A stretch of 64,000 nucleotides of DNA from Alphaproteobacteria bacterium (GTDB lineage: Bacteria; Pseudomonadota; Alphaproteobacteria; MPNO01): assembly GCA_965242495.1 (NCBI GenBank), contig OZ251446.1:458732-522731 (forward strand), written 5' to 3'. Both the position numbers and the translations under genes were made by a program. The notes under the pieces are model-generated. The model was not told the DNA's origin, did no database searches, and saw only the letters and a program-made list of their open reading frames with translations. Positions 22,233 through 58,598 of the stretch are shown piece by piece; the stretch's first letter is position 1; the number at the start of each line of letters is the position of its first letter.

Positions 22233-22347
22233 CGGCGACCGGCCTCCCAGGATGCGCCAGGATGCGCCGGGCGACCGCTCAGGCTCACCACATGAGACGC
22301 CGGACGGGCCTCCGGGAGCGGCCGTCAAGCCGCGGCGTCGGAGAGCC

Positions 22348-22967: not shown

Positions 22968-23062
22968 TGAAGACGACCATCGAACTTCCCGACGTCATGT
23001 TCCGGCAGGCCAAGGCGCTTGCCGCCGCTCGCGGCGTCCGAGGCGCAGCTCCTGCGCCGTAA
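22968..23062 (+). pseudogene. truncated RHH/VapB-like antitoxin remnant (31 codons)
   Basis: MKTTIELPDVMFRQAKALAAARGV then premature stop. GGGAG RBS. No toxin gene follows; REP repeats instead. Confidence 0.4.
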
Positions 23063-23204
23063 GGACGACGGTCGCGCCGGACGGGATGGCCGGCTTCGGC
23101 GCGCTGTCCGAACCAACGCCTTGTCCGCCCTGGGCGGAAGGGCGCGCGGCGATCGAGGCCCATCTTCGCTCGGCGGAGCGTCCGGCCGTCCCCGGCGAGG
23201 AAGC

Positions 23205-23292
23205 TTCGTCCGAAATGGATTCCCGCTTTCGCGGGAATGACGAGGGTTGCCGCGACGGCCTCCCTCGGGCCGTCGTCACAGGCTTCCCGCGC
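23205..23292. repeat. REP-like palindromic element pair (GGATTCCCGCTTTCGCGGGAATGACG core plus TTGCCGCGACGGCCTCCCTCGGGCCGTCGTCACA unit)
   Basis: Perfect hairpin ATTCCCGC-TTT-GCGGGAAT. Same units recur at 33150-33640 and 41285-41440. Confidence 0.55.
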
Positions 23293-23400
23293 GCCCGGGT
23301 TCCGCGCGCTTGGTTGGCTGAACGGACGCCCGCGCGGTTCTTTACACTCGCTTTCGATTCCCGATGCGGCGACCCGGCGGAAGGCCGGGAGGAGGGGCGG

Positions 23401-23895
23401 ATGGACGGCGTCATGAAGACGGCGATGCTGGTTCTGGCCGCCGGGGCCGCGCTGAGCGGGTGTTTGGATCCCGGAATCGACTGCTGGAGCCGGGAGCGCT
23501 ACCAGGCTGCGGCGCGAAACCCGGGCGGCCCGATCCATGAGATACGGGCCGGGACGCATCCCGGCGAGGTCGCGGTGGAAGACCCGGGCAACTGGTGGAC
23601 GGGCGTCCGGTTCACGGGCGAGTCGTGTCGGATGGAGGTCGAGCACCGACCGGAAGGGACGTATGTCGGCGCGGGTTTCCTGGACGCGGCGGTGAGGCTG
23701 CGCGCGCGCATGGGCCCGGAAGACAGCCCGTTCTTTACCGGAGAGACCGCGGACGGGAGGGTCGTCGTCCTGCAACACCATCTGGGCCGCCCCGTGTCGC
23801 TGACGCTGACCCGTTACGGGGCGGACGGAACGCTGAACTACGGGGCCTGCGGCGAACCGGGGGCGCCGTTTCTGGAATGCCATGGCGGCCGATAG
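23401..23895 (+). CDS. hypothetical lipoprotein
   Basis: GGAGGAGG RBS. Signal peptide with lipobox LSGC (MKTAMLVLAAGAALSGC). Confidence 0.55.
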   Translation: MDGVMKTAMLVLAAGAALSGCLDPGIDCWSRERYQAAARNPGGPIHEIRAGTHPGEVAVEDPGNWWTGVRFTGESCRMEVEHRPEGTYVGAGFLDAAVRLRARMGPEDSPFFTGETADGRVVVLQHHLGRPVSLTLTRYGADGTLNYGACGEPGAPFLECHGGR

Positions 23896-23933
23896 CAGGG
23901 ATCGCCGGGCTTCCCGGCCGGGAGTCCGCCACT

Positions 23934-24037
23934 GTCCTGGTTCAGACACATGTGAGACGGCGCCCATCGCGCCAGTCGATATCCGGTCGTTCCATGGCCG
24001 GAGGCCCACCCGGTGTCTCATGTGTAGTGAACCAGGA
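23934..24037. repeat. MITE-like element copy 2 (104-bp short form)
   Basis: Same TIRs as 8000-8214 and 27394-27603, lacking the ~110-bp internal segment. Confidence 0.55.
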
Positions 24038-24373
24038 CAATATGACTCAAGATTGCATTCGGTGTAGTCTCCGCCGCCGATAGCAGCTAGGAGCGCACGG
24101 GATGGATGGAATGAGGGTGCTCAGCGTAATTCGAAGGGAAGGCCGCCGGGGTAGCGAGGTGATGTGCTGCGTGACGGGTCTGGCTCGATGTGGCCTGGGC
24201 AGTGGTCGGCGGACGGTGGTCACCATCGCGGCGGAAGAGCAGCAGCGGCGACATCTACGGGCCATGCCGCCGACCAGCGGAGCGTTGAGCATGGGTGGCG
24301 CCTGTCTTTCCGAAGTCTTCGTGAGGCGTTCGCAGGGCGCCGCGGGGGCTGGCGGCGTTTGTGCGCATGGGTG

Positions 24374-24577
24374 ATGAAGATTCGCGAGTTGATCAGGATG
24401 ATCGAACGTGATGGCTGGATACAAGTGAGAACGCGAGGCAGCCACCGGCAGTTCACGCATCCCGTCAAGCCGGGAACGGTCACGGTGTCAGGCAAGGCAG
24501 GCATTGATGTGCCGCTGGGCACTCTGAACAGTGTGCTCAAGCAGGCGGGTCTGAAACAGCCGGAGAGAACCCCATGA
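24374..24577 (+). CDS. hicA: HicA family mRNA-interferase toxin
   Basis: MKIRELIRMIERDGWIQVRTRGSHRQFTHP…GTV matches HicA. ATGA overlap with hicB. Confidence 0.85.
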   Translation: MKIRELIRMIERDGWIQVRTRGSHRQFTHPVKPGTVTVSGKAGIDVPLGTLNSVLKQAGLKQPERTP

Positions 24578-24789
24578 AGTATACGGTGATTGTGGAAAAA
24601 GGTGAGTCAAGCTACGGGGCGTTTGTTCCCGACTTGCCCGGTTGCATCGCGGTTGGCGAGGATCGGGAGCAGACGTTGCGCTTGCTGGAGGAAGCGGTTG
24701 TATTTCACGTCGAAGGGCTGCGGGCAAAAGGATTGCCGGTGCCGCCACCGCAATGCGACATAGCGCATGTGGAGGTGGAAGCCGCGTGA
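24574..24789 (+). CDS. hicB: HicB family antitoxin (short form)
   Basis: MKYTVIVEKGESSYGAFVPDLPGCIAVGED…EAVVFHVEGL matches the HicB N-terminal domain. Confidence 0.75.
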   Translation: MKYTVIVEKGESSYGAFVPDLPGCIAVGEDREQTLRLLEEAVVFHVEGLRAKGLPVPPPQCDIAHVEVEAA

Positions 24790-25107
24790 CGGCATGAAAG
24801 CATGCACAGGTCGGCTCCTGGTCGTCATAGATGTTGACGTTATATTCGCTGGGAGCCGTTCCAGTTTTGAGGAACCTGAGGACTGGTACGCTGCGGTCAT
24901 TGCATGCCGACACAGATGTTACCACGAGACAATCATGACTGCCGTGTAAATTCCTGTTACGAATGATTACTTAGGAGAATCTGGATTTTCTCCCGTGCTT
25001 GAACCGTGAGGTAACCGTGATCGGAGTCGAGACAACTGTGAAACCTTCACCATCTATTGTGGCTCTTACCGGTGCCGAATTAAGATCTGTCGATGCATTG
25101 AGGAGTC

Positions 25108-25449
25108 TTAACACTGAGACGCTCGGCCTCCTTGCCGATAAGATCCTTTCACACTATCTCTTTTCGGGCGGAGGTCTCTCAGGATGATCGTCTCGTTGCG
25201 TATTTGTTGTTTGCACGCCATAAATATCACATACGCATCATTCATCTTTGTGTTGCCAGCGAGATTGGCGGGGGTCAGGCGCATCCGTCTGGCGATGGAG
25301 GCGTTGGGTTCGCCCTCGGCGCAGGCCAGGACGATCTGCGCACGCCGGACCAGCCCATGGGGCAAGGAGCGCGCATTGGTGAGACTGAGCAATTGGGATT
25401 TCTCGGTGTCGTCGAGAACGATAGGTGCGATCGGGCGACCGGGGGCCAT
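25108..25449 (-). pseudogene. IS630-family transposase N-terminal (HTH) fragment
   Basis: MAPGRPIAPIVLDDTEKSQLLSLTNARSLPHGLVRRAQIVLACAEGEPNASIARRMRLTP then divergence. No DDE domain. Confidence 0.6.
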
Positions 25450-25591
25450 GGCTGGACTCCTGTGGGAAACCAACCAGAAACGTATCGGTCATTTGAGGGA
25501 TACAACATTAGTTTGAATTGTTCCACGGAAGAAACTACCATGAGAGGGTTGCGCATGCAGGAGGCTGTCCTTCTCTATTTTCCCTGACCTT

Positions 25592-26308
25592 TTACTCACG
25601 GAAGTCTTTTTTCCACCTTGCTACCTCTGCGTATGCGTTCCGTGTGTGAATCTTCCCTTTCTCTGCTACGCTCATGTTGTGTCTGTGCATTTGCCTCAGC
25701 GTCACGCCGAGGTTGCCCATCGTTTTGTTCGCCCTCATCTTTCCGCTTCGCTCCCTCCCCATCATCAACAATACTGAGTGTGAAACCGGCCCTTCGGGGT
25801 CGCTCACCTGCATCCGCGCCGCGAAGTGTTGGCCCACCATCATCACCTTCCCGCCTGTTCCCGGGAGTCTGATCCACCGGCTGAGCTGATATTCGTTTCC
25901 GGTCCTGCCTTCCGGGATCCCCACTTCCTCCTCTTCTGTGCTCAGCCCCAGGATCGGCTCCCACCTGCCGTCCCTTCTCTCCTCGTATACCCATACGCAG
26001 CAGTCGCAGTGGCTCCGTATCGGCCAGGGAGGGAACACGCTCTTCATGGCTTCGTTGCACTCTCTGTGCATCGGCTGTACGTTCATGTCGCGGCCGATCA
26101 CCACCCCGTGCTTTCTCCGAAGCTCTTTGTGCTCTGCCCGCGACATGTGCTCATCGAGGTGCCCTCTGTTGCTCATCGTCTTCGGTATGATGTGCCCAAC
26201 GTCTCCTTCCGACGCTTCCACCCGTTTCCCGCATCCTTGCAGGTGAATCCCGCACAGTCCGCCGTCCCTCTGCCATACCCTCTCGAACTGCCGCCGTCTT
26301 TTTCCCAT
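25592..26308 (-). CDS. HNH-endonuclease-like protein (CxxC … DVGHIIP … N … H)
   Basis: ATG at 26308 with AGGAGG 11 nt upstream. GC about 50%, well below genome. HNH-type motif LCGIHLQGCGKRV…GDVGHIIPKT…NRGH. Confidence 0.55.
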   Translation of the reverse strand: MGKRRRQFERVWQRDGGLCGIHLQGCGKRVEASEGDVGHIIPKTMSNRGHLDEHMSRAEHKELRRKHGVVIGRDMNVQPMHRECNEAMKSVFPPWPIRSHCDCCVWVYEERRDGRWEPILGLSTEEEEVGIPEGRTGNEYQLSRWIRLPGTGGKVMMVGQHFAARMQVSDPEGPVSHSVLLMMGRERSGKMRANKTMGNLGVTLRQMHRHNMSVAEKGKIHTRNAYAEVARWKKDFRE

Positions 26309-26380
26309 CCGTTTACCGCCTCCTGCGCCTCGGTGCCTCTGGGTGGGCTGCTTTTTGCCCGTTGCAAATCGACCAGCCCA

Positions 26381-26697
26381 GCTTAGGCTCAGGACCTATA
26401 ACGGGGGTTGTATGGGGATGCGGGATGTGATTCAACCCTACCAGATATAGGGGGAGCATCATGTCCAACCGCCATTTCTGGCTATCCGACGCCCAATTCG
26501 CCCGTCGCCTTCGATGCCGAACTCTACAAGCGACGCAACCGCATCGAGCGCATGTTCGGCCGGCTCAAGGACTGGCGGCGCATCGCAACGCGATACGACC
26601 GATGCGCACACACATTCTTGAGCGCCATCCAAATCGCCGCTATCCTCATCTTCTGGATATCCTCATCTTCTGGATATGAGTCCTGAGCCTAGATGAC
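26381..26697 (+). mobile_element. deletion derivative of an IS5-family element bounded by 12-bp inverted repeats (TAGGCTCAGGAC)
   Basis: Left CTTAGGCTCAGGACC at about 26383, right GAGTCCTGAGCCTAG at about 26682. Contains only a transposase C-terminal fragment (…YKRRNRIERMFGRLKDWRRIATRYDR…, 26408..26686) and an 18-bp tandem duplication (CCTCATCTTCTGGATAT x2). Confidence 0.6.
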
Positions 26698-26722
26698 GGC
26701 GGTTGGCGGAGGAACGGGACGA

Positions 26723-34837: not shown

Positions 34838-37528
34838 TTATGACGCAGGTTCGATGTTCCGCGCCCGCTCCGGCCGCTCCAGCTTCTCCGTCAGCTGCGC
34901 GCGCGGGTCCTTGCCGTCGATCTCCTTCTCGACGACGAGGAACAGGCCCCGGCCCTGGGACGCGCGCTCCCATAGTTCGCCGACGGCGCTCTTCTCGGCC
35001 GCGTCGGCGCCGTCGGCGAGGTGCGCGCCCTTGTATTCGACGACGAGCAGCCGTCCGTCGTCGAGTTCCGCCGCGAAGTCGGGGTAGAACCAGTCCGAAG
35101 CCGTCGGCAGCCGGAACGACTCCGGGTGGCGGGCGACGTTGCGGATCCAGTGCTTGACGCCGGGCAGGGAGTCGAGAGCCTGCGCGCAGCGGACTTCCTC
35201 GCCGTCGTCGTCGCCGTCGAAGGCGGGGACCGCGTCCGGGCCGAGAAAGTGCCGGTTCGGCCGCCAGCGCCCGCGGTAGCGGCGCTCGTCGGCATACATG
35301 CCGTCCCGGAACGCGAAGGCGCAGCCGAAGGAGACTTGCGGCCGGGTCTCCGGCGCGAACAGGCGGCGTTGGTAGACCGCCTCGCGCTCCCGGCGGCGGA
35401 TGGCGGCGATCCGGTCGCGGACCTTGCGGGCGAGCTGGAACTTGGCCAGCGTGAGCGCGGCGACGGAGAGGCCGCGCGCCGCGGTCAGATGGCTCAGGAG
35501 GCCGGACAGCCAGGCGATCAGGTCGCTCTGGTCGACGTCGTCGGCGCGGACCTCGCGGTCGAGCCACAGCGTCAGGTTCTGCGAGGTCCAGCCCTCTACG
35601 TCGACGTCGAGCATGAATTGCGCCTCCGCGCCGGTCTGCGCGTAGGTCACGCGGTCGCCGTCGCGGTCGCCGCGGACGTCGATCTCGAACCCGCGCGCCG
35701 TCTCGCGGATCGAGAACTCGCTTGCGTCGGGCCGGTAGGGATGGGCGGCGAGCGACCAGTCGTGACTCTCCATGAACAGGTCGGTATCGGCGAGTTCCAG
35801 CTCCCCCTGCTCCATCGCGACGAGGGCCGGGACCTCGAACCGCACGCCCCGCGCCGACGGCGGAAACCGATGCTCTTCCTCATGGCGGAACCGCGCGGCC
35901 GCTTCCGCGAAGCCCGCCTGCGCGGCCGGGGGCAGGGCGTCCAGGATCGCCTTCTCCCGCGCGTCGCCCACCCAGCCGTCGACCGCGATCTCGACCGCGC
36001 CGTCGTCCGTCGCGCGCGCCGCCGCGCCTTCCGGCAACGCGCCTTCGAGCGCCGCCGCGGCTTCGGGCGGCAAGGCGACCGCATGGCGGAACACGGGTTG
36101 CGGCCTGTCGCGCGCGGCGAACAGGCCGCGGTTCGGGTCGAGCTCCGGTTGCGCCGGCTCGACGTTCTCCTTCGCCTCGTCCTCCTCGAACCCCATCGCC
36201 ACCAGCCTGTCGCTCAGGTCCTTCGCCGCGGCGGCGAAGTCGGGTTCGTGAACGAAGGCGTAGGCCTTGTTCAGGGCGGCGTGCGCGCGCCGTTCGGCGT
36301 AGGGCATCCGCAGCACCCGGCCCAGCAGCTGCTCCACGTCGGCGGCGCTCCGGATCCGCGACACCGAGCAGAAGACGTAGGCGAAGGAGCAGTCCCACCC
36401 CTCCTTCAGGGCCTGGACGGTGACGACGTGCTCGACCGGGCAGGCGGGGTCGAACAGGTCGACGCCGTCGAGCTCGCGCTGGTCGCCGGTGGCGACGGCG
36501 ATCCGCTCCGCCGGGACGCGCTCGACCTCGATCAGATGCCGCTTCAGCGCCTCGGCCGTCACCTCGCGGTTCTTGGGTTGCGCCTGGAACAGCGCCACCG
36601 GGCGGACGTAGCCGGGGTCGGCCTTCGCCGTCTCGGCCAGCCTCGCGCGCTCGGCGACGGCGGCGCTCACCGCGCCTCGCCAGTCGTCGTGCTCGGCGAG
36701 CGCCACCGGCAGCTTGATCATCGCCTCGCGCTTCAGCTCCGACGCCCGGGCGTTGAACAGGACGTTCGAACCCTTGCGCGGCGTGGCCGTGAACTCGATC
36801 ACCGCGCAGGGGTTCACCCGCGCCTGCATCTCGCGCGTGAGTCCGGTGACGGCGTTCTGCGCCTCGTCGACGATCATCAGCGGGCGGTGGAGATGGAGCA
36901 GGTTGGCGAAGGAGAACTTGGCCCCGCCCTCGGGGAGTCGCTCCAGCCCCGGCGCGGCGGCCGCGGCGGCGGGCAGGGCGGCGAAATGCGCCTCCATGTC
37001 CTCGTGATGGGCGTAGACCTTGCGGCCTTCGGTGTTCTCGACCCGCAGGGTCTGGATGGTGCCGACGACGACGCAGCACTTGTCGCGGAGGTCGTGGGGG
37101 CGGAGCTGGGCGAAGTCGGCTATGTCGAAGACGCGCACGCGGCCCGCGAACGCCGCGTCGAGGGCGCGGCGGCACGGGTGGCGCGGGTTCTTCAGCGCCT
37201 CCGCGGTCTGGCGGCGGATGATGCTGGTCGGCGCCAGCCACAGGACGAGGGGATGGTCCCGCTCGATCCAGGCGCGGCGGGCGACGGCGACGGCGTGGGC
37301 GGCGAGGAGCGTCTTGCCGCCGCCGGTCGGCAGGCGCAGGCAGACATGCGGCGTGGCGGGCAGGCCGGCGAGCGGCCGGTAGGTCGCGGCGCGGCGACCG
37401 AGCCGCGCCGCCAGTTCCGGTTCGGCGATGAGCTTCGCATAGGCCGCCGCCGGCCCGGCGATCCGCGCTTCCTCGAGAAAGCGCCGCAGCGTGTCGAGCG
37501 CCTCGGTCTGGTAGGGTTTGAGCTCCAC
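34838..37528 (-). CDS. res: Type III restriction enzyme Res subunit (SF2 helicase plus PD-(D/E)xK nuclease)
   Basis: Walker A PTGGGKT, motif II MIVDEAQN, motif III FTATP. C-terminal LLVVEYKG nuclease motif. GTG start at 37528. Confidence 0.8.
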   Translation of the reverse strand: MELKPYQTEALDTLRRFLEEARIAGPAAAYAKLIAEPELAARLGRRAATYRPLAGLPATPHVCLRLPTGGGKTLLAAHAVAVARRAWIERDHPLVLWLAPTSIIRRQTAEALKNPRHPCRRALDAAFAGRVRVFDIADFAQLRPHDLRDKCCVVVGTIQTLRVENTEGRKVYAHHEDMEAHFAALPAAAAAAPGLERLPEGGAKFSFANLLHLHRPLMIVDEAQNAVTGLTREMQARVNPCAVIEFTATPRKGSNVLFNARASELKREAMIKLPVALAEHDDWRGAVSAAVAERARLAETAKADPGYVRPVALFQAQPKNREVTAEALKRHLIEVERVPAERIAVATGDQRELDGVDLFDPACPVEHVVTVQALKEGWDCSFAYVFCSVSRIRSAADVEQLLGRVLRMPYAERRAHAALNKAYAFVHEPDFAAAAKDLSDRLVAMGFEEDEAKENVEPAQPELDPNRGLFAARDRPQPVFRHAVALPPEAAAALEGALPEGAAARATDDGAVEIAVDGWVGDAREKAILDALPPAAQAGFAEAAARFRHEEEHRFPPSARGVRFEVPALVAMEQGELELADTDLFMESHDWSLAAHPYRPDASEFSIRETARGFEIDVRGDRDGDRVTYAQTGAEAQFMLDVDVEGWTSQNLTLWLDREVRADDVDQSDLIAWLSGLLSHLTAARGLSVAALTLAKFQLARKVRDRIAAIRRREREAVYQRRLFAPETRPQVSFGCAFAFRDGMYADERRYRGRWRPNRHFLGPDAVPAFDGDDDGEEVRCAQALDSLPGVKHWIRNVARHPESFRLPTASDWFYPDFAAELDDGRLLVVEYKGAHLADGADAAEKSAVGELWERASQGRGLFLVVEKEIDGKDPRAQLTEKLERPERARNIEPAS

Positions 37529-37545
37529 CGGTCAGGCCCGCGCGG

Positions 37546-37980
37546 TCACGGGCGCGTTCCACCTCGCGCTTCGCCGAGACGCGCCAATGCTTCGCGGGCG
37601 GTTACGACGGGTATGCCTTCGACGTTCCCGAGCGCGAGGACGTGCTTCTTGTCGCCGGAAACGATCATGTCGGCTTCTCCGGCGATGGCCGCCGCCAGGA
37701 TCGGATTGTCCTTGGGATCGGGAGACAGGTTCACGGTCGGCAGATCTTCGAGGACAAGAGCGCGCGCGCCGATGTTCTCGATGATCCTCGCCGCCTCGTC
37801 GGTATCGAGACACCTTTGCAGGCGAGGCCGCGCGAGAACTTCGGCGAACTCGGCCATTTGCGCGGTGGACGTCACGAGCCCGATCTCGCCGCGCAACCAT
37901 GTCCGATAGAGCCTGTCCGGCGGCGTGCCCCTGACGATGAGGGCTGCAACAAGGATATTGGTATCAAGGACGACCCGCAC
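37546..37980 (-). CDS. PIN-domain toxin (TIGR00305-like)
   Basis: MRVVLDTNILVAA…GDKKHVL. Overlaps upstream RHH gene by 17 nt. Confidence 0.8.
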   Translation of the reverse strand: MRVVLDTNILVAALIVRGTPPDRLYRTWLRGEIGLVTSTAQMAEFAEVLARPRLQRCLDTDEAARIIENIGARALVLEDLPTVNLSPDPKDNPILAAAIAGEADMIVSGDKKHVLALGNVEGIPVVTAREALARLGEARGGTRP

Positions 37981-38200
37981 GCACGGCGTCCACTTCCTCG
38001 TCGATCAGGTCGAGGATGGCCTGTCCGTCGATCCGGGCGTTGCGCTCCTTGACGTCGTGAACGGTGGCGTCCAGAACGCGGCGGCGCACCGCTTCGTCGA
38101 CGAAGCGCGAGAGATCGCTCTCTTCGACCCCGTTGCGCGCGAGGAAGGCGCGGACCGTCCGATCCGTCTTCTCGGGAATGGAGAGATTCCATCGAACCAT
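37964..38200 (-). CDS. ribbon-helix-helix (CopG-type) antitoxin
   Basis: ATG at 38200 with GGAGA RBS. 78 aa; MVRWNLSIPEKTDRTVRAFLARNG typical partner of PIN toxins. Confidence 0.65.
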   Translation of the reverse strand: MVRWNLSIPEKTDRTVRAFLARNGVEESDLSRFVDEAVRRRVLDATVHDVKERNARIDGQAILDLIDEEVDAVRAGRP

Positions 38201-38204
38201 CGGG

Positions 38205-38290
38205 CATTCTCCAGATCGTGGACATCTGTACACATAGTGTATACTGTACACAAAAACAATGTACACATAAAATTAACACACACATAAACT
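38205..38290 (-). promoter_or_regulatory. AT-rich (about 35% GC) putative promoter/operator with three TGTACA palindromes
   Basis: CTGTACACATAGTGTATACTGTACACAAAAACAATGTACACAT immediately upstream of the RHH/PIN pair. Confidence 0.4.
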
Positions 38291-38342
38291 GCCGCATGAT
38301 GGTGCGCGCCGTCAATCTTCGCGCGCGCCGACGCGCGCCCGT

Positions 38343-39887
38343 TCAGCCCCGCGCGGTCACGTCGTAGGGGGTCTGTCGGAAGGTCAGCCGTTCGGCCTTC
38401 AGCGTCGCGTCCCGGAAGGCCGAGCGCGCGGCGTAGACGGTGAGCGGCCCGTCGAAGCCGCCCGCCGCGGCGCGGACGGCCGCCAGCGTGCGGCGCGTCA
38501 GCACGTTGCCGCCGCCGGCGGAGCGGTCGCGCAGCACGCCGTTGTAGAGCAGCGCGTAGCCGCGCCCTTCATGCGCGCCGAGGAAGGGGCTGGGATCGGC
38601 CGGGGCGGTCCATGGCCGGCCGGTCTCGGTGAACCAGACATGGGCGGCGAGGACGGGAAAGGCCACGTCCGGCCGGATGCGGCCGTCGGCGTCGAAGGCG
38701 GGCGGGGCGAGGCGGTGGAAGCGGAAGCCGCCGCCGCCCTTCCAGCCGACGGCTTCGGAGACGCCGCCCTGCTCGCCCTCGACGACCTTGCGCAGGCGCG
38801 GGGCGCAATGGGTGACGGCGTGTTCGCCCATCTCGACGCCGATCCAGCGCCGGCCCATCTTGTGCGCGACCGCGGCCGTGGTTCCGGAGCCGAGGAAGGA
38901 GTCGAGCACGAGATCGCCTGGGTCCGTGGCGATGTGAATGATTCTTGCAACTAACGCCTCAGGTTTCGGGGTAGAAAACGGTGTTTCTCCCTCAAACAGA
39001 TTCACGATTTCGCCTTTTGCTGTTCCAGTTGTACCAACCTCTTTATGGGACCAATGTGTCGAAGGAACAAGACCAACGCGAACTTCAGATAAGAATTTTT
39101 TGAGGCGAGGAGCATTATTTCCTGTCTCTCCAAACCATATCCGATTTTCCGCACACATTTCACGAAAGCGATCTTCCGTGTATAGCCAACATCGGCCTGG
39201 TGGAGGATCAACCATTCTTCCTGATGGAAGGGTGATCGTGAAAAATTGATCTCTTCTTCGTCCCTTTTCGGCCTTGGCGTGCATAGGAAGGGATGACCAA
39301 TCACCACGAGGGTCATTATCCGGATTCTTGAAACGAGCTATCTGTTCTTCAGAACTTGGCAAAGGATTCCTGATTTCACGCCAAATACCACGATTCTTCG
39401 CAAAAATCAGAATGTTGTCATGAACGTTTGAAATATCTGTCCGATTCTCCCTCGTGTGTGTACGTTGCCAAAATATATCCGCTACAAAGGAGTCGCGACC
39501 GAACACTTCATCCATGATGACCTTGAGATAGTGCCCCTCGTTGTCGTCGATGGAGACCCAGATCGAGCCATCGTCCGCCAGCAGGTCGCGCAAGAGCTCC
39601 AGCCGCGGCCACATCATGGCGAGCCATTTGGCGTGCTCCAGGCTGTCGTCGTAATGCGCGAAGGCCGAGCGCGTGTTGTAGGGCGGGTCGATGTAGATGC
39701 ACTTCACCTGCCCGGCGTAGAACGGCAACAGCGCCTTCAACGCCTCCAGGTTGTCGCCCTGGATCAACATGTTGTCCGCCGCCGCCTCCCCGGCGGAGAG
39801 CGCCGGCGCCTCCTCCAGCAGCCGGTAGGGCGCGCGCGACGCCGCGCCGATGTCCTCGTCCCGCGTCAACCAATGCAGCGTCGGCAT
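38343..39887 (-). CDS. mod: Type III R-M Mod subunit (N6-adenine DNA methyltransferase)
   Basis: DPPYN motif IV, SAM-binding FLGSGTT. Central target-recognition segment 38940-39480 is about 45% GC. Confidence 0.85.
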   Translation of the reverse strand: MPTLHWLTRDEDIGAASRAPYRLLEEAPALSAGEAAADNMLIQGDNLEALKALLPFYAGQVKCIYIDPPYNTRSAFAHYDDSLEHAKWLAMMWPRLELLRDLLADDGSIWVSIDDNEGHYLKVIMDEVFGRDSFVADIFWQRTHTRENRTDISNVHDNILIFAKNRGIWREIRNPLPSSEEQIARFKNPDNDPRGDWSSLPMHAKAEKGRRRDQFFTITLPSGRMVDPPPGRCWLYTEDRFREMCAENRIWFGETGNNAPRLKKFLSEVRVGLVPSTHWSHKEVGTTGTAKGEIVNLFEGETPFSTPKPEALVARIIHIATDPGDLVLDSFLGSGTTAAVAHKMGRRWIGVEMGEHAVTHCAPRLRKVVEGEQGGVSEAVGWKGGGGFRFHRLAPPAFDADGRIRPDVAFPVLAAHVWFTETGRPWTAPADPSPFLGAHEGRGYALLYNGVLRDRSAGGGNVLTRRTLAAVRAAAGGFDGPLTVYAARSAFRDATLKAERLTFRQTPYDVTARG

Positions 39888-39890
39888 CGG

Positions 39891-41228
39891 CTATCCGTCC
39901 GCCTTAATCGGAACGCCGCGCATGGCCTCCTCGTATTCCTTGATCCACCGCTCGGCCTCTTCCTTCGTGTAGGTGCCGGTTATGGCGCCGCTGTCTTCCG
40001 GCAGTTCGTTGCTTGCCGGCTTGCCGATATGCGGTTCCAGTGTCTCTCGCAACTCTTTCGTTTTCTTCTCAGAAAGATTAGCAGTAAGAGAGTCTAAGAT
40101 TTTCTGGTCAAGACCATTCTGAAGAAAGGATCCGGACAAATCGCTCTCTCGGCCGATCCTCACGTGGATACAATTCTTGAACGATGGACATATGATAAAT
40201 TGGCAAGTAACTCCTTGCAGTTTCGTCCTGCTAAGGATCGCCCCTTGTAGTTGCGCTTCGTCAAGGCTCGCCCCTTGTAGCTGCGCTCCGCTAAGGATCG
40301 CCCCTTGCAGTTGTACTCCGTCAAGGATTGACCCTTGCAATTGCGCATCGGCAAGGTTCGCCCCTTGTAGTTGCGCTCCATCAAGGCTCGTCCCTTGCAG
40401 TTGCACCTCGTAAAGGTTTGCTTCTTGCAGTTGAGCCCCGAAAAGGTTTGCTCCTTGCAGTTGCGCATCGTAAAGGTTCGCTTCTTGCAATTGTGTCTCC
40501 TCAAGATCCGCCTCTTGCAGTTGCACCCTCAGAAGGGATGCGTTTTGCAGTTGTGCCTGGAAAAGATTCACCCCTCGTAGTTGCGCACCGGAAAGGCTCA
40601 CTTCTTGCAGGCGCGCCCTGGTAAGATCTGCTCCGTTCAGCCAGCTTCCCTGCAAGTCGATACGGCAACCTCTGAAGATCTCGTGCTCCTGCACGAACAA
40701 CAGAGTCAACAAACTCTGAATCTCCGTCGAGGGCTCCGATTTGTGTTTCTCCTGGTACCCGTCCTCCCCCGTCGTCCGGCGGATGTGGGCGCAGAGGATG
40801 TCCAGCGCCGTCTGGCGCATGTCTTCGGTGTTCTGCGCCAGATGGAAGAGCTCGTAGGCCCCGCCCAGGCGCACCGAGTCCGACTCGTGGCCCAGATGTT
40901 CGATGGCGTTCTTCAGCCGCTCCTGCCGCCGCCCGTCCTCCGCGCCCTGGTTGGCCGCCGCCTGCGCGTTCGCGGCCTTTTCCATCGCCACGGCGCGGCG
41001 GTTGGCGATCACGGCTCCGATGGCCAGCAGCACGCCGCCCATGCCGACGCCCAGATATTCGAGAACCCGGAATTTCTTCTCCACGCCGAAGAGGTAATAG
41101 GCCAATTTCGGTTCTTCGGAAGCCATGACGATGGCCATGACGACCAGAAGGAACGCGAACAGACGGACCAGCCGCGCGACGCGGTCCGCCGGAAAGAGCG
41201 CCCGCACGACTCTACGCAACATGTTCAT
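39891..41228 (-). CDS. membrane-anchored pentapeptide-repeat protein
   Basis: Two N-terminal TM helices, then more than 25 tandem A(D/N)LxxAQLQG pentapeptide units. Stop 3 nt before mod ATG. Repeat-encoding DNA is AT-rich and internally repetitive. Confidence 0.75.
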   Translation of the reverse strand: MNMLRRVVRALFPADRVARLVRLFAFLLVVMAIVMASEEPKLAYYLFGVEKKFRVLEYLGVGMGGVLLAIGAVIANRRAVAMEKAANAQAAANQGAEDGRRQERLKNAIEHLGHESDSVRLGGAYELFHLAQNTEDMRQTALDILCAHIRRTTGEDGYQEKHKSEPSTEIQSLLTLLFVQEHEIFRGCRIDLQGSWLNGADLTRARLQEVSLSGAQLRGVNLFQAQLQNASLLRVQLQEADLEETQLQEANLYDAQLQGANLFGAQLQEANLYEVQLQGTSLDGAQLQGANLADAQLQGSILDGVQLQGAILSGAQLQGASLDEAQLQGAILSRTKLQGVTCQFIICPSFKNCIHVRIGRESDLSGSFLQNGLDQKILDSLTANLSEKKTKELRETLEPHIGKPASNELPEDSGAITGTYTKEEAERWIKEYEEAMRGVPIKADG

Positions 41229-41284
41229 GAGTGCGGACTCACGCGGCGCCCGCGCCGGCCGCGGCGGCCCCGACGGAAGCACTG

Positions 41285-41440
41285 TCCTGGTCAGGAAACG
41301 GGATACGAATATGGATTCCCGCTTTCGCGGGAATGACGAGGGGGTTGTTCGCGGAGCCTGCCCCCGGCTTGACCGGGGGAATGACGAATTGTCGGCGTAT
41401 CCGCCTCGAGCCGATGGCCCTCCTGGAGCCGTCGGCGCAG
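41285..41440. repeat. composite REP-like element
   Basis: GGATACGAATATGGATTCCCGCTTTCGCGGGAATGACGAGG … GGCGTATCCGCCTCGAGCCGATGGC, matching units in the 33150-33640 cluster. Confidence 0.55.
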
Positions 41441-41689
41441 GTCCCGCAGGCCGCCTGTGTATCGCCGGCCGCGGCAAGCGCGTCGAAGACGGCATCGGCC
41501 ATGGCGTCTCTCCGGTCGGGCGCGACCATCGCGCCCGTATTCTTCGCCCCGCGATTATATCGCGGAACGCGGCCGGCGCGCCTCCATGATCCCGCCCGTC
41601 TATTCGCTTGCTCGGGGCGCCGGGGGCGGGGCATCCTGCCGCCGGCCGGGCCGCGATCCAGGCCGAACGCGGCGACGATGGAGGCCCGT

Positions 41690-42841
41690 ATGGTCCGATA
41701 CAAGTACAACTCCGCCGACAATCATCTGGACCAGCGCTGGATCCCGCGCGACCTGTGGCGAAGCCGCGTGGCGCGCCGCTTCCGCGACGCCGCGCCGAAG
41801 GTGGTCGAGATCGACGGCGGCTCGTTCTGGAGTTGGGAAGGCAAGACGATCCGGGGGCGCGACGGCGGCTCGGCCGACGGCCCCGACAACGCGGCCCTGC
41901 TGGCCGAATTCTACGGGCCGGCGGGGGTGGACGTACCGCCCGGCTCGCTGCCGCCGGCCGATCCCGATCTGCTGCTGCGGCACATGGACCTCGCCGGCAT
42001 CTACGCCTGCGTGTCCTTCGGGGCGGTGCGCAAATGGGACATCGACGACCATGACCTGCGGATGGAGGTCCACCGCGTCTACAACGACTGGGCGATGGAG
42101 ATCAACGCGGCCGACCCGGATCGGCTATTGGTGCTGCCGCATCTGCCGACCTTCGACCCGGCCGCCTGTCCGGGAGAGCTGCGGCGGATGGCGGAGAAGG
42201 GGTGCAAGGGGGTGGAGTTTCCGGCGTTCGACGCGGGCCTGCCGGTCTGGCATGAGGCGTGGGAGCCGTGCTGGGCCGTCGCGGCCGAGGCCGGCATCCC
42301 GCTATGCAGCCATATCGGCGACAAGGCGGGCGAGCCGTACCCGCCGACCGAACGCGGGGTGCGGATGGCGCATTTCTCGACCGCGCCCTTCGCCGCGGCC
42401 CGGCCGATCGCGCAGCTGACCTATGCCGGCGTGTTCCAGCGCCATCCGGGGCTCCGCTACCATTACGGCGAATGCCGCGCCGGCTGGGCGCCGTTCCTGC
42501 TCCACTGGATGGACCGCCAGGCGCGCGAGCGCCCCGGGCTGTTCGCGGAGTCGGGGCTCGAACTGCCGCCGAGCGAATACGTCCGCCGCCAGGTGACGAT
42601 CACCTTCGAGGAGGACGACATAGCCGGGCTGTTGCTGCAACACGACGAATCGATGCTGCGGGACGTCCTGGTCTGGGGCGCGGACTACCCGCATCCGCAG
42701 GGCGTCTGGCCGGACGTCGATCCGGTGATGGACCGGATCTTCGCCGGCGTCGACGCCGGGCTGCGCCACGAGATCGTGTTCGAGCGCTGCCGGCGGCTGT
42801 TCGGCCTGAAAGGCCCCGACCCGGCGCTGATGGCGGCGTGA
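41690..42841 (+). CDS. amidohydrolase-2 family metal-dependent hydrolase/decarboxylase
   Basis: GGAGG 9 nt before ATG 41690. TIM-barrel amidohydrolase_2 pattern. Confidence 0.75.
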   Translation: MVRYKYNSADNHLDQRWIPRDLWRSRVARRFRDAAPKVVEIDGGSFWSWEGKTIRGRDGGSADGPDNAALLAEFYGPAGVDVPPGSLPPADPDLLLRHMDLAGIYACVSFGAVRKWDIDDHDLRMEVHRVYNDWAMEINAADPDRLLVLPHLPTFDPAACPGELRRMAEKGCKGVEFPAFDAGLPVWHEAWEPCWAVAAEAGIPLCSHIGDKAGEPYPPTERGVRMAHFSTAPFAAARPIAQLTYAGVFQRHPGLRYHYGECRAGWAPFLLHWMDRQARERPGLFAESGLELPPSEYVRRQVTITFEEDDIAGLLLQHDESMLRDVLVWGADYPHPQGVWPDVDPVMDRIFAGVDAGLRHEIVFERCRRLFGLKGPDPALMAA

Positions 42842-53959: not shown

Positions 53960-55033
53960 ATGGAATTCGGGATGCAGTTCTTCCCCGACGTCGGGGAAGA
54001 CGAGAAGACCGGCGCGCGCTATTTCGACGAATCGCTGCGGCTGATCGAGTATTGCGACGTCTACGGCTACACCCACGTGCGCACGGTCGAGCACTACTTC
54101 CACCCGTATGGCGGCTACAGCCCCAACCCTCACATCTTCCTGACCGCGGCCTCGCAGCGCAGCCGCAACGCGCGCATGGTCACCGGCGCCGTGCTGCCGG
54201 TCTTCAACCATCCGCTCAAGATCGCCGGCGAGATCGGCATGCTGGACGCGATCTCCGGCGGGCGGCTCGAATGCGGCTTCGCCCGCGCCTTCCTGCCGCA
54301 TGAATACGCCCGCTTCGGCGTCGAACTCGACGACAGCGTCGCCCGCTTCGACGAAGGCGTCGAACAGGTGCGCCGCCTGCTGGAGGAGGAGAACCTCACC
54401 ATGGCGGGGCGCTTCCACAGCTTCGCCAACGTGACCTCGCTGCCGCGCCCGACGCAGAAGCCGCGGCCGCAGTTCTGGACCGCGGCCTTCACGACGCCGC
54501 AATCCTTCGAAAAGGCCGGCCGCAACGGCAGCTGGATCATGGCCATCCCCATCGGCGGCGGGGCGATGGCCGATCTGGTGGCCGTCTACCGCGACGCCTG
54601 GAAGGCGGCTGGGCACCCGGGAAACGGCCGGGTGATGCTCGCCTTCCACATGTACTGCCACGAGGACCGCGAGGAGGCCTATCGCATCGGCCGCGATCCG
54701 TTGAACCGCTATCTCAAATCGCTGGTCGATGCGGCGTCCGACTGGACCAGCGGCGCCTCTTCGGCGGACTACAAGGGCTACGACAAGCTGATCGACGCCC
54801 TCGACCGGGAGACGTTCGAATCCCAGCTCGAGAAGGGCGCCGCCTGGGCCGGCGCGCCCGCCGACCTGATCGAGCAGATCGAAGCCTACGACCGGGCGGT
54901 CGGCGGGTTCGAGGACGCCTCGTTGCAGGTCAACTACAACACGATCTCCTACGAAGACGCCGAGCGTTCGGTCAAGCTGTTCGGCGAGAGGGTCATCCCG
55001 CATTTCGCCGGCAAGCGGGCGGCCGCCGAATAG
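53960..55033 (+). CDS. LLM-class (luciferase-like) flavin-dependent oxidoreductase
   Basis: Luciferase-like TIM barrel pattern. GGAGGG RBS. Confidence 0.8.
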   Translation: MEFGMQFFPDVGEDEKTGARYFDESLRLIEYCDVYGYTHVRTVEHYFHPYGGYSPNPHIFLTAASQRSRNARMVTGAVLPVFNHPLKIAGEIGMLDAISGGRLECGFARAFLPHEYARFGVELDDSVARFDEGVEQVRRLLEEENLTMAGRFHSFANVTSLPRPTQKPRPQFWTAAFTTPQSFEKAGRNGSWIMAIPIGGGAMADLVAVYRDAWKAAGHPGNGRVMLAFHMYCHEDREEAYRIGRDPLNRYLKSLVDAASDWTSGASSADYKGYDKLIDALDRETFESQLEKGAAWAGAPADLIEQIEAYDRAVGGFEDASLQVNYNTISYEDAERSVKLFGERVIPHFAGKRAAAE

Positions 55034-55067
55034 GCCGGCCGTCGAACGGACCCGCCGCCCGCGCCCC

Positions 55068-56762
55068 ATGCGCTACGACTACGCCATCGTCGGCGGCGGG
55101 TCGGCGGGCTGCGCGCTCGCCGGGCGCCTCTCCGCCCGCTCCGCCAACCGGGTTCTGCTGATCGAGGCCGGCCGCGACTACCCGCCCGGCGCCGAACCCG
55201 CGGAGGTCCGCGACAGCTTCTACACCGCCGTCTACCACGCCCGGAACCTATGGCCCGGGATCATGGTCCACTGGCGGGCGGGGCCTTGCGGCGCCCCGGG
55301 GCGGGCGGGGCCGAGGCGCTACGAGCAGGCGCGCATCATGGGCGGCGGCTCCAGCATCAACGCCATGGTCGCGCTGCGCGGCTTCCCGCGCGACTTCGAG
55401 GAATGGGCGGCCCTCGGCGCGGCGGGCTGGTCGTGGGACGACGTGGCGCCCTATTTCCGCCGGCTCGAACGCGATCTCGATTTCACCGGCCCGGCGCACG
55501 GCGCCGACGGGCCGATTCCGATCCGCCGGCACGATCCCGGCGACTGGCCGCCCTTCTGCCGCGCGGTCGCCGATGCGCTGGCGGCGCGGGGCTTCGCCCG
55601 CCTCGCCGACGCCAACGGCGAGTTCCGCGACGGCGTGATCCCGATTCCGATGAACAACCTGCCGTCCGGGCGCGTGTCCGCGGCGATGGCCTATCTCGAC
55701 CGCGACGCGCGGGCGCGGCCCAATCTCGACATCCTCGCCGAGGCGCGCGCGCTGCATCTCGCCTTCGACGGCGCGCGCATCGACGGGGTCGCGGTCGAAC
55801 GCGGCGGAAGGCGGGAGGTCCTCGCCGCGCGCAACGTGATCCTGGCCGCCGGCGCGTTCCAGTCGCCGGCGCTGCTGATGCGGTCGGGCGTGGGGCCCGC
55901 CGATCATCTGCAGTCGCACGGCGTCGACGTCCGCCTCGATCTGCCGGGGGTCGGCGGCAATCTGTGCGACCATCCGACGGTCGCCGTCGCGGCGCATCTG
56001 AAACGCGCCGCCATGCAGCCCCGGTCGCTTCGCGCCGCCGGCAACGTGGCGCTGCGATACTCGTCCGGACTCGCCGGCTGCCCGCCGACCGACATGTATA
56101 TGAGCGCGCCCAACAAGGTGTCGTGGCACGCGCTCGGGGCGCGCATGGCGTCGCTCACCGTGTCCTGTTACCGGCCGTTCTCGCGCGGCCGCGTGTCGCT
56201 CGCGGGCGCGGATCCGTCGGCGGAGCCCCGGATCGAGCTCGATCTCCTGTCGGACCGGCGCGACCTCGAACGCATGAAGGCGGGGGTCCGCTTCGCCGGC
56301 GAGCTGGTCCAGGCGCCTCCGGTCCGGGCGCTGATCAACGAAGCCTTTCCGGCGAGCTTCTCCGAGCGCGTGCGCCGACTCAACGCCTATCGGCCGGCGA
56401 ACGGCGCGCGGGCGCGGCTGCTCGCCCTGACCCTCGACGGGCCGGCGGCGCTGCGCCGCCGCCTCATCGACCGGGTAGTCAGCCCCGGCGCCGAGCTCGG
56501 CCGGCTGATGGCCGACGACGACCTGCTCGAGGAATGGGTCCGCGACAACGCGACCGGCTTCTTTCATCCGGCGGGGACCTGTCGGATGGGCGCGCCCGGC
56601 GACCCTCGGGCGGTGGTGGATCCGTCCTGCCGGGTGCGCGGCGTCGACGGCCTGCGCGTCGTCGATGCGTCGGTGATGCCGTCGATCGTCAGCGTCAACA
56701 CCAACGTCACCACGATCATGATCGCGGAGAAGGCGGCCGACGCGATCCTGTCGGCCGCCTGA
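55068..56762 (+). CDS. GMC family oxidoreductase (paralog of 9851..11569)
   Basis: [22 protein letters not shown] motif. About 45% identity by eye to the first GMC. Confidence 0.85.
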
Positions 56763-56784
56763 GCCGGCGGGGGCGCGGCCTGGG

Positions 56785-57378
56785 ATGTCCGGGGGCGAGA
56801 TCGAGCGGCTGATCCGGCTCCTCGCCAAGCTGCCGGGGCTGGGCCCGCGCTCGGCGCGCCGCGCCGCGCTTCACCTGATCGCGCGCCGCGAGGCGCTGCT
56901 GGCCCCGCTGGCCGCGGCCATGGCCGACGCCGCCCGCTCGGTCGTCGCCTGCGGCGTCTGCGGCAACCTGGATTCGCGCGATCCCTGCGCCATCTGCGCC
57001 GACGGACGCCGGGACCCGGCCGTGATCTGCGTCGTCGAGGAGGTCGCGGATCTGTGGGCGCTCGAGCGCATGGGCGCGTTCAAGGGCGCCTATCACGTCC
57101 TCGGCGGCGTCCTGTCGGCCCTCGACGGGCGCGGACCCGAAGCGCTGGCCATCGACCGACTGGTCGAACGCGCCGCCGCGCCCGCGACCAGAGAGGTGAT
57201 CCTCGCCACCTCGGCGACGGTCGATGGCCAGACCACCGCGCATTACGTCGCCGACCGGCTCGCCGGGGCGGCGGTCGAGATCTCGCGCCTCGCGCATGGC
57301 GTGCCCGTCGGCGGCGCGCTCGACTATCTCGACGACGGCACCCTGTTCGCCGCCCTGGAGGCCCGGCGGCCGGTCTGA
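56785..57378 (+). CDS. recR: recombination protein RecR
   Basis: HhH, C4 zinc finger (CGVCGN…CAIC) and Toprim domain. Confidence 0.9.
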
Positions 57379-57812
57379 GGGCGCGCGGCGGCGCCCGCCA
57401 TTGGCGGTTGGGGTCGCCCTGGCGCCGTTCCCGCGTCGTCGGAGGAGGATCGAAGGGGGCTACGGCGGTGGATAATCGGGCGCGGGCGATGGCGAACTCG
57501 TCCTTCCAGGGATGGGCGGCCATGGCGGTACAGGCGCGACGCCGGGCAGGCGCCCTGCCTCACATGTGTCCGAACCAAGTCGGGTCGGCGCTGCGCTGCG
57601 CAACGCGCATACGGCCGCGACGAGCAGGGCGGAGCCGCGCCAATCTTTCGCGAAGCGCCGGCAAAGCGCGATTCATGATCGAGCGCATGACTCAAATTAG
57701 GGTTTTTCTCTCCTGCTTCCCGCCGCTAGGTTTCGAATCGGTTTCAAACACGGGCGGGAACGCTTGCGGACCGTCCGCACGGGCGGAAGCGGAAGGAGCC
57801 GGGAGACGAAGG

Positions 57813-58160
57813 ATGGACAAGGAGACTCACGGCCAACGCTGGGCGGCGATGGTGGCGAACTGGCGGGGGGACCCCGAGTTCCGCTCGCGGATGGAGGAGG
57901 ATCCCAAGGCGGCGCTAGCCGAGAACGGGATCGAACTCCCCGGCGGCGTCGAGGACGTGCGCCTCGCGGTGGACAGCGAGGAAACCGTTCACATGGTTTT
58001 TCCGCCCGATCCGAACGGCGCGATGTCCGACGCCTCGCTCCAGGGCGTCGTTGGCGGCACTGATTGGATGATAATGGGTAATGGCTGGATGATAGGAACT
58101 TATGACGTTCCTCAGACTCCGTTTGCTTTCGCGTTTTCCGGCGGACTGACCTCGGGATAG
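57813..58160 (+). CDS. NHLP (nitrile-hydratase leader peptide) family RiPP precursor
   Basis: Strong AGGAG RBS cluster. Leader RWAAMVANWRGDPEFRSRMEEDPKAALAENGIELPGGVEDVRLAV…VHMVFPP…LQGVVGG matches the NHLP consensus including a terminal GG. 33-aa core TDWMIMGNGWMIGTYDVPQTPFAFAFSGGLTSG encoded by about 43% GC DNA. Confidence 0.7.
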   Translation: MDKETHGQRWAAMVANWRGDPEFRSRMEEDPKAALAENGIELPGGVEDVRLAVDSEETVHMVFPPDPNGAMSDASLQGVVGGTDWMIMGNGWMIGTYDVPQTPFAFAFSGGLTSG

Positions 58161-58598
58161 GGCGGAAGCCTAAGGGCCGCGACCGCCTTCGGGCGATGGT
58201 CCGAAGCCGGGCGGGGATCGCCACTCCTCCTCCCTGTCGAGGGAGAGAGCGTCAGCCCGCATTCGCACGCCGATCCCGCCGGCCGCGCAACGGCAGACGT
58301 TCGATCGCAGCCCCGTGATGGGTGATCCGGCGGCGCGCCGACGTCGCTCCCTCCCGCCCAACTCCAGTCGGTTCAGCGTCGATTTCCCCGCTACCGTGGT
58401 CGCGAACTCACCGCCCCGCCGTCGAACCCCGCCGCAACCGAACGGCCCTCGACCGCTTGGAACCCAAACGACGTCGTGCTACGCTCCGTCTGCATCGGGG
58501 AACCCCTCTGCCGTCAGATAACTCTCTGTTCACAAAGAATTATCTCACATGCAGAACCCCGATGCGCCACACAGTACGAGAAATGCGGGCTAAGGCGC

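Follow-up and report, generated by a model that had tools for sequence, protein, structure and literature searches.

A stand-alone NHLP-type precursor gene with a compositionally alien core in a high-GC alphaproteobacterium

Introduction

The gene at positions 57813-58160 (+) of the window, by which we mean the whole 64-kb stretch of DNA analyzed here, encodes a precursor of the known NHLP class and, judged by its sequence, falls in a small divergent clade of that class. It is best explained as a functional and self-contained transcription unit that consists of an upstream element, a ribosome-binding site, an open reading frame (ORF) and a 3' hairpin, and that is presumably transcribed as such. 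Its product is best explained as an 82-aa, putatively structured leader followed by a 33-aa core that is Cys-free, hydrophobic and acidic. We hold it to be fairly probable that the precursor, one of a dispersed family, is cleaved behind Gly82 and is exported in trans by a transporter encoded elsewhere. The unusual features are the stand-alone architecture with an upstream element of its own, the signs of lateral spread, the mosaic and compositionally alien core, and the reuse of the leader in front of a CFI-box domain.

The precursor gene and its composition

The ORF is intact and codes for 115 aa, with the ATG at 57813 and the TAG at 58158-58160. A Shine-Dalgarno sequence, GGGAG, occupies 57801-57805 and is separated from the ATG by 7 nt; a second such motif, AAGGAG, precedes it at 57793-57798, in agreement with the strong ribosome-binding site and the 115-aa ORF reported in the preliminary description. 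Both motifs belong to a purine-/GGA-rich 5' untranslated region (5' UTR; 57732-57812, +), which was read from the sequence and is 83-86% identical to that of the related loci L091, L104 and L107. The leader (aa 1-82; 57813-58058, +) is an NHLP-clan domain of nitrile-hydratase-alpha (NHase-alpha) descent and ends in the tail ...MSDASLQGVVGG, the double-glycine codons of which occupy 58053-58058. It is followed by the N-terminal part of the core (TDWMIMGNGWMIGTYDVPQT; 58059-58117, +), which is variable and AT-rich and where a GC trough, a duplication and mosaicism coincide, and by the conserved C-terminal core tail (PFAFAFSGGLTSG) with the stop codon (58118-58160, +), whose motif is kept in homologues.

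The core, TDWMIMGNGWMIGTYDVPQTPFAFAFSGGLTSG, indeed has 33 residues and 0 Cys, as first described, and the whole 115-aa precursor, leader included, is without any Cys. The core is rich in Gly, Met, Phe and Trp and contains 4 Thr and 2 Ser. Its unmodified monoisotopic mass is 3554.60 Da, which corrects an earlier value of ~3.4 kDa to ~3.55 kDa, and its pI is 4.05. The claim that the core is encoded by an AT-rich, compositionally alien patch holds as well. Measured over 80 nt, GC is lowest at 58058-58137, where it falls to 0.4375; the window mean is 0.70 (sd 0.074), and <1% of all 80-nt stretches have a GC of 0.45 or less. The GC at third codon positions (GC3) is 0.48 in the core, compared with 0.87 in the leader and 0.86-0.93 in twelve neighboring genes, and by our own count the GC of the core is ~45-55% at each of the three codon positions. 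The GC trough is partly a matter of amino-acid composition, yet the codon usage of the core is also alien.

Homology of the leader and the Gly-Gly site

The assignment of the leader to the NHLP family stands as to homology and fails as to canonical membership. TIGR03793 (leader_NHLP) matches aa 13-82 with model positions 9-77 of 77 (E=1.3e-10, 41.0 bits), and the Pfam family NHase_alpha (PF02979) matches aa 16-81 with 29.5 bits, above its gathering score of 27.2. The TIGR03793 score, however, misses the curated trusted cut-off of 50.9 bits, and the relatives tested against the same model, at 40.7-44.5 bits, are all under it too. The leader is homologous to the NHLP / nitrile-hydratase-alpha clan, and its NHLP score under the NCBIfam trusted cut-off places it in a divergent clade outside canonical TIGR03793. 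A family profile built on the precursor and its relatives matches nitrile hydratase alpha (1v29_A) with E=7e-17 over the C-terminal ~66 residues of the alpha chain, and the solved NHLP leader of SrpE (8tb1_A) with E=7.7e-16.

With respect to the enzyme itself, homology is restricted to profile positions 110-176 of 184 of PF02979, the N-terminal half is absent here, and the score against TIGR01323 (nitrile hydratase alpha) is 29.4 bits against a cut-off of 249.85. The metal site of nitrile hydratase is absent because the protein has no cysteine. A functional nitrile hydratase alpha was rejected, given 115 aa, 0 Cys and no beta subunit adjacent to the gene, whose neighbors are recR and def.

The TIGR03793 model ends (77/77) on G82, the second Gly of the pair. 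The leader tail can be written M(-12)SDAS L(-7)QG V(-4)VGG, with GG at -2/-1 and hydrophobic residues at -4, -7 and -12; the closest homologues all have L at -7 and one of M, L, I and V at -12. The tail of the window protein, MSDASLQGVVGG, agrees with the Gly-Gly logo that Haft 2010 (PMC2887384) gave for NHLP leaders, as well as with the L(X)4L hydrophobic recognition common to NHLP-binding enzymes and C39 proteases (PMC12537861). The double-glycine site first proposed at VVGG is supported in that HMM homology and conservation both stop exactly there. An AlphaFold model, weak at a pLDDT of 56, predicts a helical leader (helices 3-37, hairpin 50-63) and a disordered core.

Relatives and conservation

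A word-indexed search gave ten close homologues and a profile search five more, at 58-68% identity over the matched part. All of these ~15 relatives come from metagenomes or assemblies, and all are intact with respect to start, ribosome-binding site, GG site and stop. When the window protein is compared with its ten closest homologues, 48 leader columns are invariant and conservation collapses right behind VVGG. Comparing cores across relatives, a check proposed in the preliminary description, finds them variable as anticipated, with a mean pairwise identity of 0.38 for the core versus 0.86 for the leader. Behind the variable N-terminal patch, the C-terminal core motif P-x-AFAFSG-x-LTSG is present in eight of the ten closest homologues, and this tail is conserved at the nucleotide level, yet its GC3 is low. 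In the leader, dN is smaller than dS in nearly every pair, for instance 0.18/0.55 and 0.38/1.19 against distant members, and the two exceptions fall among the closest pairs, which have too few differences for estimates. The alternative of a decaying gene, also raised initially, is contradicted by ~15 intact homologues with conserved leaders and a dN below dS in nearly every pair.

An exhaustive HMMER search returned 3717 NHLP-like clusters (50% identity) at E<=1e-3, only ~3 of whose representatives are near or below E=1e-30, so that the family, as far as sequence relations go, is a tiny clade inside the large NHLP superfamily. Its distant members have the leader pattern ...DPxFRxxxExDPKAALAExG...HxVxPPDPN...L..VxGG in common, and their cores are unrelated. 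In two proteins, P0012 and P0013, the same leader with its VVGG stands before a 125-aa domain that passes the CFI_box_CTERM model (44.9 bits, cut-off 40). Because the same leader and cleavage motif precede such a domain, this arrangement argues that the leader is mainly a tag for export and processing.

No close relatives were found in species-representative genomes and JGI metagenomes with the family alignment and the degenerate DNA pattern for H[MV]VxPPDPN; the single match in those scans was a distantly related soil contig of 1.5 kb, on which two NHLP genes lie in tandem. The viral contigs searched held no family members, and the plasmids searched held only true nthA genes. A homology search with the core alone gave no matches and was insensitive, since not even the known family members were recovered.

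Mosaic structure of the core patch

The core patch contains a 21-nt tandem duplication, the two copies of which (58056-58073 and 58077-58094) encode GTDWMI and GNGWMI. Its history is best followed in L107, which occupies the same locus as L091 and L104. In the 5' UTR, L107 is 94-97% identical to L091/L104 and 84% identical to the window, and in the core tail and 3' segment the corresponding values are 97% and 90%. In the variable patch (58059-58117) the relation is reversed, with 72-74% identity and 14 gap positions against L091/L104 and 93% identity to the window. Since the patch of L107 matches the window and its flanks match L091/L104, the sequences provide direct evidence of an exchange of the AT-rich patch between copies. 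The low GC3 of the core (0.36-0.64) is confined to the subfamily with the AFAFSG tail, whereas the distant members have values of 0.88-0.92. The AFAFSG-type core may thus derive from a pool of ~45-55% GC, or be kept by exchange with it.

The shared module: upstream element, boundaries and lateral spread

Homology between the DNA of the window and that of its relatives is confined to the precursor gene and its immediate flanks. Upstream of the 5' UTR lies a promoter-like element, AAATTAGGGTTTTT-N-CCGCCGCTAGGT (57694-57731, +), which is conserved in relatives and consists of A(A/G)ATTAGGGTTT(T), followed after 19-20 nt by CTAG(N)(N)T. Of the 15 family loci other than the window, 13 have a single copy of the 8-mer TTAGGGTT, always placed on the same strand as the ATG and ~95-115 nt upstream of it. 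The most distant member lacks it at both of its loci, and the contig of L107, 700 bp long, ends short of that position. The background is 3 occurrences in 953 kb of unrelated loci. The AT-rich, promoter-like upstream region first reported is thus confirmed as a GC trough (57671-57750) that contains an element conserved in relatives, but a scan of the region for the sigma-70 consensus gave no match. A regulator or an alternative sigma factor may bind to the element, in which case the dispersed genes would form a regulon. A cluster of GANTC (CcrM) sites in the same region was dismissed, as it is not conserved in relatives.

The module extends further to the left (57585-57693, +) only in homology to the L001-L005 copies. 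The left blastn limits are 57585/57593 for L001-L005 and 57664 for L091, and the homology to L107 covers 57715-58214, its left limit being the start of the 700-bp contig. On the right, a conserved 3' segment (58161-58214, +) begins with GGCGGAAGC directly after the stop codon and continues into a GC-rich hairpin, CGCC-TTCG-GGCG, around 58184-58195. Homology ends at 58214 with L091, L104 and L107, which marks the right end of the module, and at 58169 with L001-L005. A terminator scan of the 3' segment, which has no T-run, was negative; a role of the hairpin as terminator is nevertheless conceivable. For the 5' UTR, RNA structure prediction gave nothing significant (z=-0.78) and Rfam no match. 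A predicted long-range stem between the codons of FPPDP and the post-stop GGGCGGAA was discarded as an RNA element (z=-0.65, no covariation, nothing in Rfam).

The leaders of the window and of L001 differ by a dS of 0.12 and are 93% identical in nucleotides, whereas the recR genes on the same two DNA molecules have a dS of 0.88 and 72% amino-acid identity. This difference implies that the module is much younger than the genomes that carry it, and therefore points to lateral spread or gene conversion. At the module ends no transposase was found, and terminal repeats or target-site duplications were weak and at chance level only.

Genomic contexts

In the window the gene order is recR, precursor, def and fmt. 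Pfam scans of essentially all long ORFs assigned the remaining content to genes of aromatic-compound catabolism, a tRNA synthetase, a restriction-modification / toxin island, and further genes that include prs, L25, pth, ychF, a dienelactone hydrolase, an MFS transporter, a luciferase-like monooxygenase and a GMC oxidoreductase. In the 64 kb, the same scans detected no gene of the radical-SAM, YcaO, LanM, C39-ABC or HlyD type, and the precursor gene is indeed an orphan in the window, as originally stated.

Seven distinct contexts were recovered, and all are housekeeping ones. Besides that of the window (recR, precursor, def), the L001-5 copies lie between an AAA_14/DUF4143 ATPase on one side and cytochrome c, kdsB, pheA, NUDIX, dnaX, ybaB and recR on the other; at L091, L104 and L107 the order is PrpD, TauD, TauD, precursor, Trypsin_2, ruvX and gatCAB; L089/90 has the precursor next to a class II aminoacyl-tRNA synthetase; L087/88 has RNase II, MFS, precursor and LpxR; L086 has DctPQM, the precursor-CFI-box gene and an AAA ATPase; and L105 is a 2.5-kb contig on which both neighbors are without a recorded Pfam family and one touches the contig end. 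Within <=10 kb in the relatives' contexts, many of which are short contigs, there was no maturase and no peptidase-ABC exporter (PCAT, HlyD), and the NHLM transporter set TIGR03794/03796/03797 was not found clustered in the 64-kb window or in those contexts (<=10 kb). An association with TauD was rejected as inconsistent, since such genes are near two relatives' loci and absent from the window, L001-5, L087 and L089. No NHLP gene was present at 80 alphaproteobacterial recR loci, and the best RecR identity among these was 73%, so low that the host lineage is evidently poorly sampled.

Comparison with known systems

The precursor shares with the NHLP leader family a leader of ~80 aa derived from the C-terminal part of NHase-alpha and lacking the metal-binding cysteines, as well as a Gly-Gly at the end of homology followed by a hypervariable core. 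It differs from that family in its score (41 versus 50.9 bits), in a core that is rich in aromatic residues and Met and not in Cys, Ser and Thr, and in the lack of an adjacent NHLM transporter, cyclodehydratase, LanM or radical-SAM gene in the seven contexts. Precursors of lanthipeptides and of TOMM products are set apart in a similar way, as the core here has 0 Cys and the window has no LanM and no YcaO cyclodehydratase.

The closest solved NHLP leader is that of the SrpE/SrpI proteusin brominase system (PDB 8TB1; PMC10858898, PMC12537861), in which the enzyme docks on a short hydrophobic L(X)4L motif of the C-terminal SrpE leader tail, as C39 proteases do (PMC12537861). The equivalent motif here is M/L/I/V-x4-L. 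The two leaders are only distantly related, and no halogenase is nearby here.

The prochlorosin (Nif11) families resemble the present one in their conserved leaders and hypervariable cores, and they have many precursor genes per genome. Their precursor genes are scattered around the genome. They differ in that the leader is of the Nif11 and not of the NHLP type, and in that their cores serve as lanthipeptide substrates, with a need for Cys together with Ser/Thr, whereas the core here is Cys-free. The prochlorosin precursors of marine picocyanobacteria are reportedly served by a single promiscuous enzyme (PMC10783134; bioRxiv 2020.03.09.984088).

The Gly-Gly motif is also common to the class II bacteriocins and microcins exported by PCATs. 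Double-glycine class II leaders have hydrophobic residues at -4, -7 and -12, and they precede small, hydrophobic, anionic and Gly-rich cargo that looks unmodified, encoded by a unit of promoter plus gene. These leaders are much shorter (~15-25 aa, compared with 82 aa here) and unstructured, and their genes normally lie beside those for immunity and transport.

Proposed mechanism and alternative explanations

In the mechanism that we propose, expression would be driven from the shared upstream element, and a C39-peptidase ABC exporter (a PCAT, or the NHLM type of Haft 2010) encoded elsewhere would recognize the leader tail, cut after Gly82 and release a hydrophobic, anionic 33-mer of ~3.55 kDa. 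The dispersed modules, with their common leader and upstream element, presumably share both a regulator and the exporter, and their cores may have been diversified via duplication and cassette-like recombination. We infer the cleavage, the export and a peptide activity of the core from sequence features. Several points count against export in trans: the core is not rich in Cys, Ser and Thr as characterized NHLP substrates are, the TIGR03793 scores of all family members are under the trusted cut-off, no PCAT, HlyD or maturase gene turned up in the 64 kb here or within 10 kb in the relatives, the AlphaFold model is weak, and the upstream element fits no known promoter consensus. In favor of it, NHLP conservation tracks the peptidase-ABC / HlyD export cassette more than any one enzyme, some NHLP-bearing species have no known maturases, and paralogous precursor families can be large in single genomes, with up to 29 members in Prochlorococcus marinus (PMC2887384). 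The stand-alone housekeeping contexts agree with that account, in which NHLP conservation follows the transporter and precursor paralogues are many per genome. Modification of the core by a trans-encoded enzyme before export and export in unmodified form appear about equally likely, the latter because of the Cys-free core, the lack of enzymes in seven contexts and the presence of the same leader on the 125-aa CFI-box domain; nothing in the data points to modification.

The sub-case in which modification is required is that of a true RiPP of the proteusin type, whose aromatic, aliphatic, Asp or Thr residues would be modified by a dedicated, if promiscuous, maturase from a distant locus before export; it differs from our explanation in this point only, and we consider it possible, if somewhat doubtful. 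Candidates for the enzyme are a radical-SAM epimerase or cyclophane synthase, a P450, a flavin halogenase or an Fe/2OG hydroxylase. NHLP leaders do serve many enzyme classes, the mature products being proteusins (PMC12537861, PMC2887384), and SrpE, which has the closest solved leader, is a peptide brominase substrate. The conserved tail AFAFSGxLTSG beside the variable patch could be a site of enzyme recognition or modification, and TauD-family genes occur near two relatives' loci. On the other hand, the TauD association is inconsistent, no enzyme lies near any of the seven contexts, the leader also carries a folded domain of 125 aa as cargo, and a core with 0 Cys has only 6 Ser/Thr among its 33 residues. 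A cytoplasmic protein resembling nitrile hydratase alpha, acting as a regulator or partner, with an unconstrained C-terminal tail and not secreted at all, would agree with the lack of an exporter in any of the contexts, with the predicted folding of the leader (helices 3-37, hairpin 50-63) and with the NHLP-clan protein Os1348, which crystallized as a stable dimer and whose secretion could not be shown (PMC7726476). We nonetheless regard it as unlikely, since conservation breaks exactly at a canonical Gly-Gly with the right hydrophobic spacing, the C-terminal core tail is conserved and hence constrained, cores are swapped as cassettes, and the joining of one and the same leader to unrelated cargo is what one typically sees with an export tag.

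The orphan state of the gene everywhere and the lateral movement implied by the leader and recR dS values (0.12 vs 0.88) would also be expected of a remnant, either a leader-core gene left after cluster loss or a functionless, selfish mobile module. This seems very improbable in view of ~15 copies that are all intact, of a leader and an upstream element retained across members of 58-89% identity, and of module ends without transposase or terminal repeats. Even harder to credit is an origin of the AT-rich core as the variable region of a diversity-generating retroelement or as the product of some other targeted mutagenesis. Hypervariation is confined to ~60 nt at the 3' end of the ORF, beside a conserved 3' segment, as such a system would have it, but the variants are indels and a 21-nt duplication and not adenine-specific substitutions, and the window contains neither a template repeat or second copy of the core nor, in Pfam scans of its long ORFs, a reverse transcriptase. 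For the 64-kb window, a diversity-generating retroelement is effectively refuted by the missing template repeat and reverse transcriptase.

A more speculative extension of the trans-export explanation, to which we give a rather small chance, is that the ~550-bp unit is a laterally mobile plug-in module. It would insert between housekeeping genes and rely on a regulator and an exporter acting in trans, perhaps also on a maturase for aromatic/aliphatic residues, and its core cassette would be exchanged among loci and genomes. If true, bacteria other than cyanobacteria would possess a combinatorial library of peptides, based on an NHLP leader that serves to export folded CFI-box domains as well.

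Biological implications

The practical value of the finding is modest. It offers a new family of Cys-free cores as candidate antimicrobial or signaling peptides and resolves no long-standing question. The conserved upstream element provides a concrete means of locating, in a complete genome, the exporter or maturase that is missing here. If our explanation is correct, local cassette exchange would create core diversity and leave a strong compositional scar, and the leader would be a general export/processing tag for peptides of 16-36 aa as well as for a 125-aa CFI-box domain. NHLP precursors in uncultured high-GC alphaproteobacteria would then exist as free-standing, co-regulated modules, which would escape cluster-based genome mining.

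Leader Fused to a CFI-Box Domain

The NHLP-type leader of the precursor is also found joined to a protein domain. In two proteins, P0012 (encoded at 10001-10624 of L086, a contig from a relative) and P0013, a precursor-type NHLP leader and VVGG site are followed by a 125-aa CFI_box_CTERM domain, whose NF041770 score of 44.9 bits exceeds the cut-off of 40. A search of the full-text literature for "CFI-box" found no paper. Upstream of this variant (L086 9922-9950; L106 1889-1920), a poly-C run forms the spacer that separates the ATTAGGGTTTT box from CTAG. L086 and L106 are two assemblies of one locus, and the spacer differs in length between them, with about 11 and 14 C. This difference could be a long-read homopolymer error, one of the contigs having 3x coverage, or it could reflect phase-variable promoter spacing.

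Genomic Surroundings of the Precursor

In the window, a luciferase-like monooxygenase and a GMC oxidoreductase are encoded upstream of recR (53960-57378), whereas in the related locus L001 the order is dnaX-ybaB-recR; the precursor neighbourhood is therefore rearranged relative to that of L001. Two of the seven gene neighbourhoods of the family have genes for TauD-family Fe/2OG dioxygenases close to the precursor (L091 6247-9379 and L104 496-3628, where transcription is divergent, and L086 5317-6255), and because this proximity is inconsistent across contexts it is probably coincidental.

The sequence GGGCGGAAGC is present in the 5' UTR of the precursor and again directly after its stop codon, and is complementary to TTCCGCCC in the FPP codons of the precursor; these sites occupy 57781-57796, 58000-58012, and 58155-58175. 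The copy after the stop codon is kept in relatives. Pairing of GGGCGGAAGC with TTCCGCCC received neither statistical support from folding nor support from covariation.

GC is reduced at 20960-26700 of the window, falling to 0.55 at 24.5-26 kb, and those candidate ORFs of this region that were scanned gave no Pfam matches; a PIN-domain protein (20963-21664, minus strand) and a 590-aa protein with DUF7662 (22351-24120, minus strand) lie alongside. This region may be an island gained by horizontal transfer. Positions 34841-41000, on the minus strand, form an island that resembles a defence or restriction-modification locus; in it, a Pfam scan of long ORFs identified a ResIII helicase-family protein (34841-37531), a PIN_3 toxin (37549-38004), and an N6_N4 DNA methylase (38346-39890), all on that strand. 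The island also encodes a pentapeptide-repeat protein, which occupies the low-coordinate end of the minus-strand stop-to-stop ORF 39894-42101, where GC is 51%. The sharp GC trough inside the methylase gene (38929-39534, ~45% against 70% for the genome) is reminiscent of a swapped target-recognition segment.

Distant NHLP Precursors

Among 12 pattern matches in JGI metagenomes, the sole NHLP match was L094, a 1.5-kb soil contig carrying two distantly related NHLP precursors (about 35% identity) in tandem on the minus strand (52-769), both ending in AVAGG. Many of the nearest NHLP relatives have a length of 170-240 aa and carry two tandem NHLP leader domains followed by a single GG-core, as in the representative-library matches P0030, P0031, and P0034, among others. 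Haft 2010 (PMC2887384) noted fused NHLP-Burk pairs, of which this arrangement is reminiscent.
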